Below are positions 4,001 through 55,700 of a stretch of 64,000 nucleotides of DNA, in pieces. Under the pieces are notes generated by a model. It worked only from the letters and a program-made list of their open reading frames with translations, was not told where the DNA came from and did not search any database. The first letter of the stretch is position 1. Each line of letters begins with the position of its first letter. This DNA is from Euglena gracilis. Taxonomy: Eukaryota. The position numbers were made by a program, and so were the translations under genes. The DNA lies in the NCBI GenBank assembly GCA_039621445.1, contig CP154954.1:41037572-41101571 (forward strand), in the 5' to 3' direction.

Positions 4001-7000
4001 TATCTCAGCCGTTGATGACGTTGTTGATGTTGTTGACTAATTCTAGATTTTTTTCCACCCCGTTTTATTTTTTTCAAAGAGGCCTTTTGAGACAATTCTT
4101 ATTCACGGCACATTGTAGTTGTGTATGGTGTAGTATGTTGTAAAGTGTATTTTTTTTGCTCTTTGTTGCTGTGTTTAACCCTCCTACAGGAAGTCCATTT
4201 TTTAACTGAGAAAACTGGAAAGTTTTCCCAGGATTTTAATTTTGGGGGGAGCTGGGGTGGGGCGAAACAGTGTCCCAACTATTAGCAACCCATCAATTGC
4301 GGAGCCTGACCACTGGATGTCACCCGGCCAAGGGGTTGCTTAAAGTTGTGCTTCACCGGACAGCCGAGGGATGGCTTGAATTCGGTCTGCAAACAAACAT
4401 CTCTTTCGTTCCAACGCCAAACACAATTTGAAAATTGAAGCAACTTTAACCAGCAAACAAGTTTCGCTCATTTCTCCAGTTTCAATTTTTTTTTTCATTT
4501 GCGGGTGTGGCAAGGCGTCCTGTTTTCTTCACAAACCCAGTCAACCATATCAGTCCTAACCCCCCCCCCCAAGTTTGACTTGTGCAGTTGTGATGGCAAG
4601 GGACTCTCCAGACCCTCCCGGACGCCTCTGCAGGCCCCCTGCAGGAGGATCTCCGGGCGATCGAGAAAACATACAGCATCGTGGCGGCGGTGACCGAGGT
4701 GAAGGTGACGGTGTCGGGGCCGGGGCATTGCTGAATTGAAAGAAACCCCCACCGCCGGGGGGTGGCGGGGGGGGGGGTGGTCCAGCCAGCCTGTGGTTTT
4801 TTTCCCGCCCCGGTGCCCCCCCTTCCAGTCAGGGAACGAACCTCCATGGGTCGGGGGGTTGGCCGGCTCACACCAACAACTTGAATTGCCGTTGCTTGGG
4901 AGGGAATCTCCGGCACTCGTGCTTTCGGCTTCATTTGCCAAAGAATGGTGACGGTGAGGGCAAAACCGGGGGCGACCAATAGGGGGGGGGGTGACTAACT
5001 GTACGGTGGTCAGAGTTGGTCAAGAAATCCAAAAGTGGCAAAATTGACCACAAAAAATGACTCCAAATGGGCAAAAATGCAGCCTCCACCAACGATGAAA
5101 ATGACCTGAACGGGAGATTGATGGAGAAATTGCTTCTGCATTGCAAGGTTTTGCAAGGATGTGGCTCGAGTCATTCGAGTCACACAGCTGGCCGACCGCT
5201 GGCCGACGGCGTGCTCCCCCACCCCCGCATTTCAGAGGTCGACTTCCTTGGCGCAATGATGTAGACTGGGGGGGTAATGGGTAGTCGGCCGCCTTCTTTC
5301 TTTCGGCCAGCCCAACTTGGTTTGCCTTTGGGCGGACCCCACCCCCGGGGGTCGGTCAGCGGCTCCCTGGCCGGGGCTCAAGGTGCTGGTGGAGAAGGCC
5401 GCCAAGGAGATCCTGTACCTCCTCCAGAGCGGGGCCCGGCCGCCGGAGGGCTGGCACGGGGTCCTGCCGACGCTTAGTGTGTTGCGAGATCGGGGCTTCT
5501 GCGTTGTGCGCACACAGACAACTGAAGGGGTTGTCTCTATGAGGTCGGCATTTGCCTGTAGGATTTCACCAGAACCGGAATGATTCCACCACTATGTCTG
5601 TATGGGGCATGACACCGCATTTTCAGCGAAATTGTGTCGTTTCAGTTTGCCACTGATAATTTGCTTTTGAAACCAACGTACTGTATTATGTGTGTCCCTG
5701 TTTGTTTTTTACAAAAATGTCTTCCCAGCTGGTTTCCGTGTTTGTTTGAGATGTGGGCCAGGGGGGTGTTGTAAATGGGAGGGTCTTGGATGAGGAGCCA
5801 GCAAGTGAAGGGCGAGTTTCATTTTCGCCGTTGAGTGCTCGATATTCTCTTAAATCAGAAATCCCCCCCCCTCGTAAATAGAATCCCCCCTCTCTATGGG
5901 CAGCCTACAGAGGTGGCCATCAAAGGGATCCCTGTTTCGTGACTTTGGTTGCAGTGCATTTTTCATCGCAGTGTTCCTGCCCGAATAGCCTCCGCTCCAC
6001 GGCTTTTGTGCCCCCAAGTGGTATGCAACCCGCAGGCCAATCGGTTCGGGTTGTGTTTTTATTTGTTTATTATTTGTATGCATCATTGGTTTGAGATGGC
6101 TGCCCAGCCGGGCGCCCCGTCCGCCCCCACCCTTTTGGCCGGGCCCTCCCCAGGCCTGATCTCGGAGGCCGAGCTGGAGGCTGAGGCCCCCGCCGCCCCC
6201 ACCACCGCCCCCTTGGCCCCGCCCAGCATCCCGCGGCCGCCGTACCGCAAGCAGGGCCGCCCGCGCCGGCAGCGGCGCCGGGGCGAAAGCACACTGCTTC
6301 AGATCCAGAATCCGGGCTCGAGATCCACGTGGTTCGGCTCTCGAGCACCAGCTGGGGGTGCTTTGGTGTTTGGGAGTCAGATGTGGTCGTCCTGTACATT
6401 TCATTAGAAAGTCCAGGGTTGCCGGGAAACACAGTCGTATTCGCAGCGAATGCAACGTGATGGACGATGGAGCCCAACGTTGCCCCGGCCAGCCGGCTGG
6501 CTGGGGGGGGGAACAGAACACCAGCCCAACGCCCGCCCTCTGGGAGAGTCCTCCCAAGCCCAAACACTGGCTCTGTTTTCTCCCCGCCGGAGTTTTCCCA
6601 ACGGACGGACAAGGGAATGGATTCCAACACTGGTTGGGCTCCTCCCCCAAGACCCCCCCCCCCACCGGCCCGGGGCCGCCCTGCCTCCGCCATGGCGCGG
6701 CCGCCGGCGGTGGCGCGGGGTCCCTACTCTCGGGCACCGTACCGTGGCCCCGCCGCCCAGGGCCCAGTGGACTGGTGGAGTCCGCCCCCCCCACATTTCA
6801 TGTCTGGCATGGCGGCGACCCCCCCCCCTGCCATGCCCAACACTGCCCCCTCAGCCCCCCCGCCCCTGCCAGCACCCTCATCTCGTACGCCATCCGCATC
6901 TCGGGCGTCCCCCAGCGCGCGTGCGTCTCGGACGTCGTCAAGTTCTGCGCCCGGCTCGGTGCCCCCGCTGTGGGTGGCGTCCGCCTGCCTGGATGGGAGG

Positions 7001-52700: not shown

Positions 52701-55700
52701 ACCCACCCACCCACACACCCACTCAACACACACTCAACCGCCCACACCTACCCACCCAAACCCACCCATACCACCCACCCACCGGCACACACACGCGCGC
52801 GCGCGCGCGCGCACACACACACACACACACACACACACACACACACACACACACACACACACACACACACACACACACACACACACACACACACACACAC
52901 ACACACACACACACACACACACACACACACACACACACACACACACTGCAGGCACACATGCACGCACGCAGCATGCATGTGCGCAGGTGCACGTGCGCAC
53001 ACACGCACACAACAGTGCATGTGTGTCCAGGGTCGCTGGCGTACGAGGCACTGTGCCAGCAGGAAGCGGAGCAGGCCCTTCACCTACTGGCGCAGTACCA
53101 GGCAGAGGAACAACAGCTCTCTGTGGAGATGCGGGACCTCCGGCAGCAGTGCGCTCCGGCTGTGCGTGCATGTGTGTGCGCACAGCATGTGTCTGCCTGT
53201 GTGAGTGAGTGAATCAGTGAGTGAGTCAGTGAGTGTGCATGTCTGTGCGTGCGGATGTGTGTGTGTGGGCGTGTGTGCGCGCGTGCATTTGAGCGTGGGC
53301 AGGGTTTGAAATAAGGAGGGTGTACAGGTCAAGGGAGAGGCGTGTCCCCCTCACCACCCTCCTGGACCGGGGGGTCCAGATCCCCCACCTGCCGGGAGGT
53401 CCGGATCGGGGCCGCCAAAAAAGGGTAAGTTCTTTCCTTCTGGGATGGTTGGTAGGTGGGTTTTTCTTTCCTTGCACTGAAGATTTCGGCATTTTTGACA
53501 ATTTTTTTTGCCCAAATAGTGCCCAAAATGGATTTTGTCCAATTTGGGGGGGGTGGGCAATATTTTTCGGCCCGGCGCTTAATCGGTCACCACTGGGGGT
53601 TTATTTCAGCTGGAGGTGGACTCAACCCCCCCACCCCCCTGGAGGGTCCGCTGAAATATTGTTCGGGCCAACCCAGCAAAGCCAGGTGAGACGGGAAAAG
53701 TTTTCGGCGCAAAGCGCCGACAATTTCTGGGAAAGAGGTCGGAAATGGCCAAAAGTGGCATTTTTGGGAGTATTGTATTTTCACCTCCAATTTTTGGTTG
53801 ATGAATGCCAACCCGGTTGGATTTGGGCTTTTTGCCTGTTTTTGGGGTACCTGCCGGGTCCAGCTGCCAGGCGGCCGGACCCCCCCCCCCGGAACGGAGG
53901 GTCCTGGACGTGGGCTGGAGGTCCCAGCACGATCAAATCCAGACCAAATTAAACCAGTTCACTGCCGACCAGAAGTGAAGCAACACAATTACACCCACGG
54001 ACCAGGTGGGGAAAAGGTGGCAGGGGCAACGCCATGCAATGAGGGCACACCACAGACAACGGTTGAACGCTGTCAGGGACAGGTCCAGCCGGCACCAGGC
54101 CGTATTTTAGTCGGGTGCCGACCCCACCCCGAGGGGGGGGGGGGTGCCTGCCTGGGCAGGCACTCCCGATCCGACCCCCCCAGGGGGGGAGGGCACACGG
54201 CCAAAAGTTCCCCAGCACAGACCCGGCGCTGGGGAGCCAAAAATGGCCTATTTTTAAAGGAATGTGCCTGGGCACAGGCCGAAATCCACCCCCCCAGGGG
54301 GGGGGTAGTGCCTGCCTGGGCAGGCATTCCAAGGCACTCCGGACCCCTCCTCCCCGGGGATGGTAAAAAAAAACAGCCTGGCCGGCACCTTTTTCCAGCC
54401 GGCCTGCAGGTACCCCACCAGTCCTAAGAAAACCAGGGTTTGATATAAGGAGGGCGTACATGGTTTAGGTGGGGGGGGTGTCCCCCCCCCCCCCCCTCCT
54501 GGCCCGCAGGGGGGGGTCCGGACCACCCCCCCACCTGTCCTTATATCGAACCCTGAAGAAAACCCCTGTCCCAGGCCGGTTAGGTGTACAAGAGGGTGTC
54601 CCCCCAGCCCCCCTGCTGGACCAGAGGGTGCCGGTCCCACACCACCCATACCCGGCCCGCCTTGATCTGCTGGGGGACCAAACCACCTTCTTCGGACAGC
54701 CCTTTTTTCAATTTGGGGGACCGCTCGCAGCCGGCCGCCGCGGAGCTCCGGCACCGCAACCCCCGGGCCGCGGCCCGGCCCCTCCCGGCCGCCGCCGTCG
54801 GCGGGGGCGACGGTGGGGCCGCCGGGGCCGTGCGGGTCCGCGACCTCCGCCGCCTGGCGAACCCCCGGCCGGGCCGGTCCCGGTGTGCCCACAGCTCTGC
54901 CCTCCGGGAGGGGGAGGGGGGAGGAATGCAAGGAAGAAAGCGTTCAACACAGCAGAAAACAACTTGTTTTTCACTGTGTCGCGCTTTGGCTTCGGATCCA
55001 TTTTCCTTGCTGAGCGGTTCCCATACCACGTACAGGACTGGCAGGCTCTCGTAGGGCTACCGGGAACCCCAGGCACCCCATGGTATGGTGTGAGGGGGGG
55101 CCTGGGTGGCGGTCAGCCATCCACAATGCCCTCGGGGAACAGGCCAACAGGTATCCTGTGGCTGCGCCCGTCGCAGGCCCACGAAGGTCGTCGGAGCTCC
55201 GGAGGCCGACCTGAGCCACAGCCGCCGGGCAGGACACGGACGCATGCTGTCTAATCCATCCGGTAGGCCGTCCTGGGGTAAGTTTTCATTTTTCTGGTTC
55301 AGAGGTTTTGCCGCTTTTTGGGCAACACAACACAACACAACCCAGGCAGTGGTCAATTCCCAAAACAAACCCCAAACACCACCGTCGCCAGGGTGGTGTT
55401 TTTTGTGGACCATTCAAACACATCTGAAAAGTTTTGGTGGTAGCGAAGCCGGAGTCAAGTCAACCTACAGTCATGGGGTAGGGTAACCTTCTCATGAAAA
55501 CCCCCAATGGTCTCCAAAATACCACCCCTACCACAAACGATACCCCATCCTTAGGATAGACTTTGGCTGCCCAATTAATGCCCCCTTCCACACTATGGTG
55601 CAGACAAAGGGAACCGGGTGGAAAAATCACGGGATAAATCAAAAACACAGAAATGGATGACATTGAGCTTTTACAAGTTCCAAACCCGTTAGGTTTGAAT

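Follow-up and report, generated by a model that had tools for sequence, protein, structure and literature searches.

Since the 1990s there has been no settled answer to how the non-conventional introns of euglenids arise and how they are removed. We addressed it in a 64,000-nucleotide (nt) stretch of Euglena gracilis DNA (assembly GCA_039621445.1, contig CP154954.1, positions 41,037,572 to 41,101,571 of the forward strand), referred to below as the window, which carries such introns together with MITEs (transposable elements of the miniature inverted-repeat type). The original prediction for this stretch was that these introns are cut 3 nt before and 5 nt after a terminal stem, that the two spacers add up to one 8-bp target-site duplication (TSD) of a transposon, and that splicing therefore removes the element plus exactly one TSD. 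The arithmetic is sound and its premises are supported, but the support that the introns themselves give to a transposon origin within these 64 kb is modest. On balance we consider it probable that non-conventional introns derive from CAG...CTG elements that duplicate 8 bp on insertion and are removed without a scar.

The course of events that we favour would be as follows. [quoted passage not shown] The host has a non-spliceosomal removal activity, already published, that recognises the terminal hairpin closed by CDG/CHG, with one cut 3 nt upstream of this hairpin and the other 5 nt downstream. Since the element ends would serve as splice anchors, the duplication is 8 bp long and the cuts lie at -3/+5, a transcript with an element in an exon would lose that element and 3+5 = 8 nt, i.e. 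one copy of the duplication, and the pre-insertion sequence and reading frame would return, whatever the codon phase. Restoration had been predicted for any site and any phase; it holds for any phase, by arithmetic, but not for any site, as a purine is preferred at position 6 of the duplication.

The 3/5 splice geometry is published knowledge and was not discovered in this window. Nomura et al. (PNAS 2025; PMC12501133) used mutagenesis and synthetic introns to define the code 5'-N3-CDG...CHG-N5-6^R (^ marks the junction) together with base-pairing; the 3 nt ahead of CAG are strict, 5 (or 6) nt follow CTG, and a downstream purine is preferred.

Elements with CAG ends and 8-bp duplications

Ten free MITEs with CAG starts, CTG or ATG ends and 8-bp TSDs had been described in the window, and all ten were confirmed (elements and introns are named here by their first position). 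Each starts with CAG and has an inverted-repeat partner of 12-16 nt 122-463 bp downstream. The 3' end is CTG in seven and ATG in three (23563, 33327 and 40075), and the 8-bp flanking repeat is exact in seven and matches at 7/8 positions in the other three (18813, 24667 and 34234). A blind scan for CAG...CTG pairs with a terminal inverted repeat (TIR) of at least 10/12 returned 111 pairs, among which five exact flank repeats of length 8 were observed against 0.2 expected from the same pairs with a shifted right flank; exact flank repeats of length 7 or 9 were absent. Among 147 CAG...(C/A)TG pairs with a TIR of at least 12/16, flank identity was bimodal, at 0-5 in 137 pairs, 6 in none and 7-8 in 10. 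The 8-bp flanking repeats of the MITEs are far above chance.

The scans added two elements with exact 8-bp repeats, 27403-28724 and 61980-62329, to those originally described. One pair with flank identity of 7-8 (23522-24549) was rejected as a chance pairing of G-runs, and element 59636-59919 was dropped, its flanks prolonging the inverted repeat and leaving the ends undefined. Altogether 14 family copies retain both ends; they are 122-1322 bp long, match at 11-16 of 16 TIR positions and are non-coding, as MITEs are, and 12 of them have 8-bp flanking repeats (9 exact, 3 at 7/8). Several families are represented: 23563 and 40075 share 86% identity over 312 bp, 2542 and 24667 share 66% over their full length, and 18813, 34234 and 33327 have common ends. 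The end motif is CAGGG in four families and CAGGC in others. The 12 duplications show base preferences, with A at position 7 in 8/12, C at position 8 in 9/12 and T at position 2 in 5/12. Nine of the 14 copies sit within introns of mapped genes. A 17-nt TIR pattern, used in a metagenome scan, matched 32 loci, none otherwise similar to the window elements, and these are chance matches.

Nine of the 12 MITEs satisfy the published CDG/CHG motif, with 11-15 of 15 positions paired, and might be spliced if transcribed within an exon. The predicted exon begins with a purine in one orientation for seven of the nine, and in both for the remaining two. Removal in either orientation, as originally suggested, is thus plausible for these nine CAG...CTG or CGG...CTG elements, but not for the three CAG...ATG elements, which fail the code both ways. 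In the predicted RNA fold of the shortest MITE, 54434 (122 nt), the hairpin ends exactly with the CAG/CUG pairing, and the 8 nt on either side stay unpaired (z -5.3).

Some elements lie within others or within introns. Region 285-920 looks like one element nested in another: a member of the 11704 family, truncated at its 5' end, contains an insert that shares 81% identity with element 27403 over 381 nt. Fragments like MITE 54096 lie in reverse orientation at 9362-9603, within the non-conventional intron 8928-10002, and later MITE insertions are frequent in the window's non-conventional introns (also 11704, 23563, 24667, 27403 and 40075).

Transposons of the hAT superfamily have the terminal motif YARNG and the target preference nTnnnnAn. 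The window elements resemble hAT MITEs in their 8-bp duplication, short CAG-starting TIRs, size (120-460 bp) and weak preference for T at position 2 (5/12, P=0.13) and A at position 7 (8/12, P=0.001) of the target; 13/24 half-sites match (P=8e-4). They differ in that YARNG fits the CAGGG families fully, whereas several families start with CAGGC, and in the asymmetric ATG end of three elements. The hAT type had been assumed in the original prediction; with duplication length, end motif and target preference as its basis the assignment is reasonable but unproven, and the transposase may be of hAT type. Alternatively, the same mechanism may have operated with another superfamily that duplicates 8 bp, most plausibly Merlin. 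Passages of PMC8101967 report two Merlin families in E. gracilis, both with 8-bp TSDs, and no transposase domain, of hAT or otherwise, was found in the ten longest open reading frames (ORFs) of the window. However, the same passages give Merlin a duplication of 8-9 bp and TIRs with a conserved terminal 5'-GG, and the window elements agree in duplication length but begin with 5'-CAG. Together with the hAT-like half-sites and the CAGGG ends, this makes a superfamily other than hAT possible but somewhat doubtful.

Junctions and possible duplication traces of the non-conventional introns

Three genes on the + strand of the window were mapped through homologous proteins: one that we call gene X, a BMT5-like rRNA methyltransferase gene and an M20 peptidase gene. 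To fix the junctions, possible donor and acceptor sites were tried in turn, the resulting spliced translation was scored against a homolog, and splicing was then checked over whole genes. In this way 18 non-conventional introns, backed by spliced protein alignment or domain colinearity, and 9 GT-AG introns were placed. Ten non-GT-AG introns had been proposed, and all ten starts are junctions. Seven are backed by full-length homologs, namely six in the M20 gene (21711, 23147, 25035, 26751, 28913 and 37725) and intron 4718-5374, which the alignment of gene X to protein P0004 supports. For the other three (8928, 11217 and 11632) no full-length homolog spans the surrounding BMT5-like exons, and the support consists of Pfam hits of the flanking exons, an open spliced frame of 159 amino acids (aa) and colinearity with the 168-position BMT5 profile. 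An alternative for 21711 that lies 6-7 nt upstream (21704/5-22276/7) had the top score but was rejected, as it requires a 2-aa insertion; the junction originally proposed is free of insertions and deletions and fits a 10-bp stem.

The 3/5 register (N3-stem-N5) fits 17 of the 18 introns. In an independent helix search the best terminal helix fell in this register in 15/18; of the other three, 25035 has no helix, 20418 has spacers of 3+6, and 11217 has either these or a bulge. GT/AG was found neither at the junctions of the 18 introns nor at the MITE ends. Positions +4 to +6 read CAG in six of the ten introns originally listed, the rest having CGG (twice), CAA and TGG. The statistics that follow are for 17 introns and omit 20418-21635 (3+6), 10256-11183 or 10256-11171, 14043-15076 and the last M20 intron near 41577-41972. 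The full CDG/CHG motif is present in 10/17 (59%); PMC12501133 gives 61.2% for non-conventional introns. The other seven introns have CAA/TTG (two), CAA/CTG, CAG/GTG, CGG/TCC, TGG/CCG and TGC/GCG. The first downstream exon base is a purine in 16/17 (C in 1113-1451) and so is intron base +1 in 16/17, as expected if both represent one and the same position of a duplication.

The intron that begins at 10256, between the GVDAT and FNFPH exons of the BMT5-like gene, has two solutions. An exact 7-nt direct repeat, CACTCAG, at 10252-10258 and 11180-11186, in the same codon phase at both ends, favours 10256-11183. The best helix (10 bp) favours 10256-11171, a 3+6 junction 12 nt upstream that differs by 4 residues and matches the Pfam profile length exactly.

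Comparison of the 8-mer before the stem with the 8-mer after it gave a mean identity of 3.65/8, where cross-paired introns gave 2.76 (P=0.003 by permutation). The excess is carried by four introns: 4718 (7/8), 11217 (6/8), 11632 (5/8) and 1113 (5/8). Two of these, 4718 and 11632, are also the ones with MITE-like arms; this overlap and the purines shared by intron base +1 and exon base +1 say more than the mean identity does. With CAG itself excluded, the arms of 4718 score 14 (33327 family) and those of 11632 score 15 (54096), and the 5' arm of 11632 is 81% identical to MITE 54096 over 57 nt (blastn). The junction of 4718-5374 is slidable over 7 positions. The likeness of intron ends and MITE ends, proposed as a check on the prediction, thus holds for these two introns but not for the other 16 of the 18, whose arms score 4-8 and are unlike any window MITE. 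The eleven in-register M20 introns (identities 2-4) bear no trace of a duplication, and are old or of other origin.

Several observations weigh against a transposon origin with scarless removal. Identity of the 8-mers is at chance level (4 or less) in 13/17 introns, and the number of introns with an identity of at least 5 is not significant alone (P=0.135). The predicted excess at an offset of 8 is there, but an assumed duplication of 5 gives an equal one (0.482 vs 0.367, compared with 0.456 vs 0.346 for 8), and in a 14-intron set a shift of -3 scored nearly as high as the 8-mer register. Position 7 of the putative intron duplications is never A (0/17), in contrast to the 8/12 of the MITE duplications. 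Intron 25035 lacks a clear helix, and 20418-21635 is 3+6 and therefore cannot be the scarless product of an 8-bp duplication. On the side of the elements, two copies with both ends have no flanking repeat (61325-61546, 1/8; 22543-22904, 4/8), the three CAG...ATG MITEs fail the splicing code, and no window MITE interrupts a mapped exon, except in the form of two degenerate introns, 4718 and 11632. As to the offset of 5, N3 is GCC in 6/17 introns and N5 often ends in CC (introns of 1113-41531). Such endings produce an apparent 5-nt repeat (two exon nt plus N3, against N5) that is enriched like the 8-nt one, and this repeat may stem from the sequences that the cutting enzyme prefers, and not from an insertion.

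The two eights might coincide by accident. The introns would then have come by another route, as filler in double-strand-break repair or as ancient introns with a separate origin; the CAG...CTG MITEs would form a family with no relation to them that just happens to have the same, common terminal trinucleotide, and the 3/5 spacing would reflect the structure of the enzyme only. The 13/17 introns without a repeat above chance, the 16/18 with arms unlike any window MITE and the equal enrichment at offset 5 all fit such an accident, and there is precedent in print: direct repeats flank conventional introns too, 84.4% of all introns being 'slidable' (PMC12501133), and passages of PMC4770533 show its authors taking their own 8-nt repeat as a double-strand-break repair footprint. 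Yet the duplications place the MITE boundaries precisely at the splice-anchoring trinucleotides, the two MITE-like introns keep repeats of 7/8 and 5/8, and 8-mer identity exceeds that of cross-pairing. We therefore judge a coincidence quite unlikely. We consider it highly improbable that the intron came first and is itself mobile, for example through an excised circular RNA that is reverse transcribed and inserted at staggered breaks, the 'free MITEs' being dispersed intron copies rather than products of a DNA transposase. Excised non-conventional introns do occur as full-length circles, according to passages of PMC11282704, the 9/14 MITE copies inside introns of mapped genes are transcribed, and the ten longest ORFs hold no transposase domain; but a copy of an excised intron would bring the 3+5 spacer bases with it, whereas the MITE copies run exactly from CAG to CTG between site-specific duplications. 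A fixed length of 8 bp, A-rich at position 7 and C-rich at position 8, moreover looks like the target preference of a transposase.

The preferred reading, with transposon insertion as the source and scarless removal as the outcome, could hold for the bulk of the non-conventional introns. In a stronger form, the 3/5 geometry would have been selected, or the enzyme recruited, as a match for the staggered cut of 8 bp that one CAG-ended transposon superfamily makes in its target. We regard this as unlikely, and the splicing machinery matched to transposon ends that was originally suggested as speculation. If true, a 'precise excision' at the RNA level would make insertions of the family neutral in almost any exon, and would account for the share of ~70% that non-conventional introns have in Euglena. 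In this form, base preferences are expected to be shared between intron +1 and exon +1, and between exon -1 and the last intron base.

Genes and other features of the window

The window has a GC content of ~55% and abundant microsatellites. The mapped features are listed in the table. The spliced product of gene X is gapless and stop-free against P0004, with 238/240 residues identical (99.2%), and a Pfam search of this protein returned no family. The BMT5-like gene also has GT-AG introns at 10099-10213 and 12095-13937. The exon at 8718-8927, used as a homolog query, gave no match at E<=0.001, and nine long ORFs in 9014-12569 gave no BMT5 match in Pfam; the small BMT5 exons were spotted by eye instead. 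Filtering crudely on GC3 did not help to find exons.

Removal of 14 introns from the M20 gene, including GT-AG introns 22446-23108 and 29035-37599 (8.6 kb), leaves a stop-free frame of 460 aa, which agrees with P0001, a protein derived from a eukprot transcript, at 402/460 residues; another relative bears the source name EG_transcript_6175. Together with the intron types, this puts the window in a euglenid that resembles Euglena. Across intron 25035-26662 (exons 24966-25034 and 26663-26749) the protein reads GVCHAGYN^DCH, P0001 has GVCHAGFNDCH, and P0002, a relative named as E. gracilis, has GVCHACGHDAH. The Cys-Gly-His-Asp stretch is presumably part of the metal-binding motif of the M20 family. 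With this stretch altered, the M20 protein may be a catalytically diverged paralogue.

Polypyrimidine tracts ahead of AG are C-rich, not T-rich, in GT-AG introns 1513-1971, 2294-3148, 12095-13937, 22446-23108 and 29035-37599, and the abstract of PMC11170887 agrees with this. Within the 8.6-kb intron, 29500-32470 is dense in short inverted and direct repeats with a ~20-nt unit like CAAATGCGCACATCGACCAC, and a 48-bp tandem array at 31821-32034 belongs to the same repeat family. Repeated palindromic CATTGCGCTTAAGCGC units at 34931-35850 lie on both sides of a C-run of 169 nt (35432-35600); a T-rich stretch of ~70 nt (35604-35679) comes immediately after this C-run. A large inverted-repeat structure occupies 56074-57167, with nested inverted pairs 56074/57167 and 56223/57017 (each 15/16). 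A palindromic unit of 14 bp recurs there in runs (56089-56193 and 57048-57152), and tandem repeats of 171-211 bp with many G-runs lie at 56350-56941.

Table. Genes, inverted-repeat elements and non-conventional introns mapped in the window (^ marks the junction)
Feature	Position	Strand	Details
Gene X	1046-6251	+	8 exons, 240 aa; introns: 5 GT-AG and 2 non-conventional
BMT5-like rRNA methyltransferase gene (PF10354)	8865-15895	+	partly mapped; Pfam matches of exons
M20/M25/M40 peptidase-family gene (PF01546, PF07687)	19872 to at least 42063	+	spliced protein alignment
MITE, CAG...CTG	2542-2823		TSD CCCCAAAT exact; inside GT-AG intron 2294-3148 of gene X
MITE, 16/16 TIR	11704-11935		TSD GGCACCCC exact; nested in non-conventional intron 11632-11995
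MITE, 16/16 TIR	18813-19033		TSD 7/8
18813/34234-family copy, TIR 14/16	22543-22904		flanks 4/8
MITE, CAG...ATG	23563-23874		TSD CTCCCAGC exact; inside intron 23147-24964; 40075 family
MITE, CAG...CTG	24667-24903		TSD 7/8; kin of 2542; inside intron 23147-24964
TIR element, 1.3 kb, CGG...CTG	27403-28724		TSD ATTTCCTC exact; inside intron 27210-28834
MITE, CAG...ATG	33327-33688		TSD CTCTTGCC exact; inside GT-AG intron 29035-37599
MITE, CAG...CTG	34234-34696		TSD 7/8; inside GT-AG intron 29035-37599
MITE, CAG...ATG	40075-40381		TSD CAAGGAAC exact; inside intron 39554-40803
MITE, CAG...CTG	54096-54380		TSD GCCGGCAC exact
MITE, 122 bp	54434-54555		TSD AAGAAAAC exact
11704-family copy, both ends	61325-61546		no flanking repeat (1/8); counter-example
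MITE, CAG...CTG	61980-62329		TSD GTGGCAAC exact
Gene X intron	1113-1451	+	GCC-CAG...CTG-GTGCC; first exon base C; 8-mer identity 5/8
Gene X intron	4718-5374	+	GGC-CGG...CTG-GCCGG^G; 8-mer repeat 7/8; arms like 33327 MITE family
BMT5-like intron	8928-10002	+	GCG-CAA...TTG-GCGGG^G; 8-mer identity 4/8
BMT5-like intron	11217-11592	+	ACA-CAG...CTG-CCCCC^A; 8-mer identity 6/8
BMT5-like intron	11632-11995	+	GCG-CAG...CTG-GGGTG^G; 8-mer identity 5/8; holds MITE 11704
BMT5-like intron	15109-15810	+	8-mer identity 4/8
M20 intron	20418-21635	+	terminal helix of 9 bp; spacers 3+6, in total 9 rather than 8
M20 intron	21711-22289	+	10-bp stem, 3/5 register; 8-mer identity 3/8
M20 intron	23147-24964	+	8-mer identity 4/8
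M20 intron	25035-26662	+	no helix of at least 5 pairs found; 8-mer identity 2/8
M20 intron	26751-27079	+	CAG...GTG; 8-mer identity 3/8
M20 intron	27210-28834	+	helix in 3/5 register, closing pair mismatched; 8-mer identity 4/8
M20 intron, 78 nt	28913-28990	+	CGG...CCG; fold closes at +4/-6; 8-mer identity 2/8
M20 intron	37725-38205	+	TGG...CCG; 8-mer identity 3/8
M20 intron	38312-38932	+	3/5 register; 8-mer identity 2
M20 intron	39085-39445	+	3/5 register; 8-mer identity 2
M20 intron	39554-40803	+	3/5 register; 8-mer identity 4
M20 intron	40883-41531	+	3/5 register; 8-mer identity 2

Relation to known introns and introners

Four pieces of the picture are separately in print: a MITE-like origin (2014), an 8-nt repeat (2016), TSD-like repeats (2024) and the 3/5 code (2025). 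A MITE origin had indeed been proposed in general terms, as the original prediction stated: passages of Milanowski et al. 2014 (PMC3935182) suggest it, report direct repeats at most junctions and note that euglenids had no known transposable elements at that time. Passages of a 2024 review (PMC11282704) term the CAG/CTG triplets TIRs and call TSD-like repeats frequent at junctions. PMC12501133 mentions a MITE source, and the words 'TSD' and 'duplication' are absent from its text. The MITE origin, the TSD-like repeats and the 8-nt repeat in a newly gained intron are thus already published. Searches of full texts, with supplements and figures outside their reach, returned no publication that equates 3+5 with an 8-bp duplication, and none, in main texts, that describes CAG-ended MITE families in Euglena; passages of PMC11170887, PMC6221363, PMC12621601 and PMC12455990 mention neither an 8-bp duplication nor MITEs of Euglena. 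The synthesis of 3+5 with the 8-bp TSD is sound and, as far as we found, unstated in print.

The window introns are themselves no different from published euglenid non-conventional introns. They share the non-GT-AG borders, the CAG/CTG-type triplets at +4 to +6 and -8 to -6 that close a helix, the spacers of 3 and 5 nt and the exon purine, and the same genes mix them with GT-AG introns. What the window adds is the missing object, non-intron copies in the form of transposon families with the same splice-anchor ends and with 8-bp duplications; these free MITE families are real new evidence, and with them the odd asymmetry of +4/-8 becomes a prediction in quantitative terms.

One close case is gapC intron 4 of E. 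agilis ACOI 323, described in passages of Milanowski et al. 2016 (PMC4770533). It is strain-specific, i.e. polymorphic for presence and absence, and has eight-nucleotide direct repeats at its junctions, as an 8-bp duplication predicts; in these passages, however, the repeat is tied neither to the +4/-8 geometry nor to a transposon family. A parallel in mechanism is offered by the introners of Micromonas and Aureococcus, TIR transposons that generate introns (Huff et al. 2016, as cited in passages of PMC11282704). There, too, short TIR transposons make introns, and the target-site duplication enables precise removal from RNA. Introners are, however, spliceosomal, the element giving one GT/AG site and the duplication the other, whereas the system in the window has no GT/AG, would be anchored for removal by the TIR hairpin, and has cut offsets that sum to the duplication length. 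If our reading is right, Euglena would be a second case beside introners, mechanistically different from them, in which the TSD makes transposon-born introns scarless without the spliceosomal GT-AG rule.

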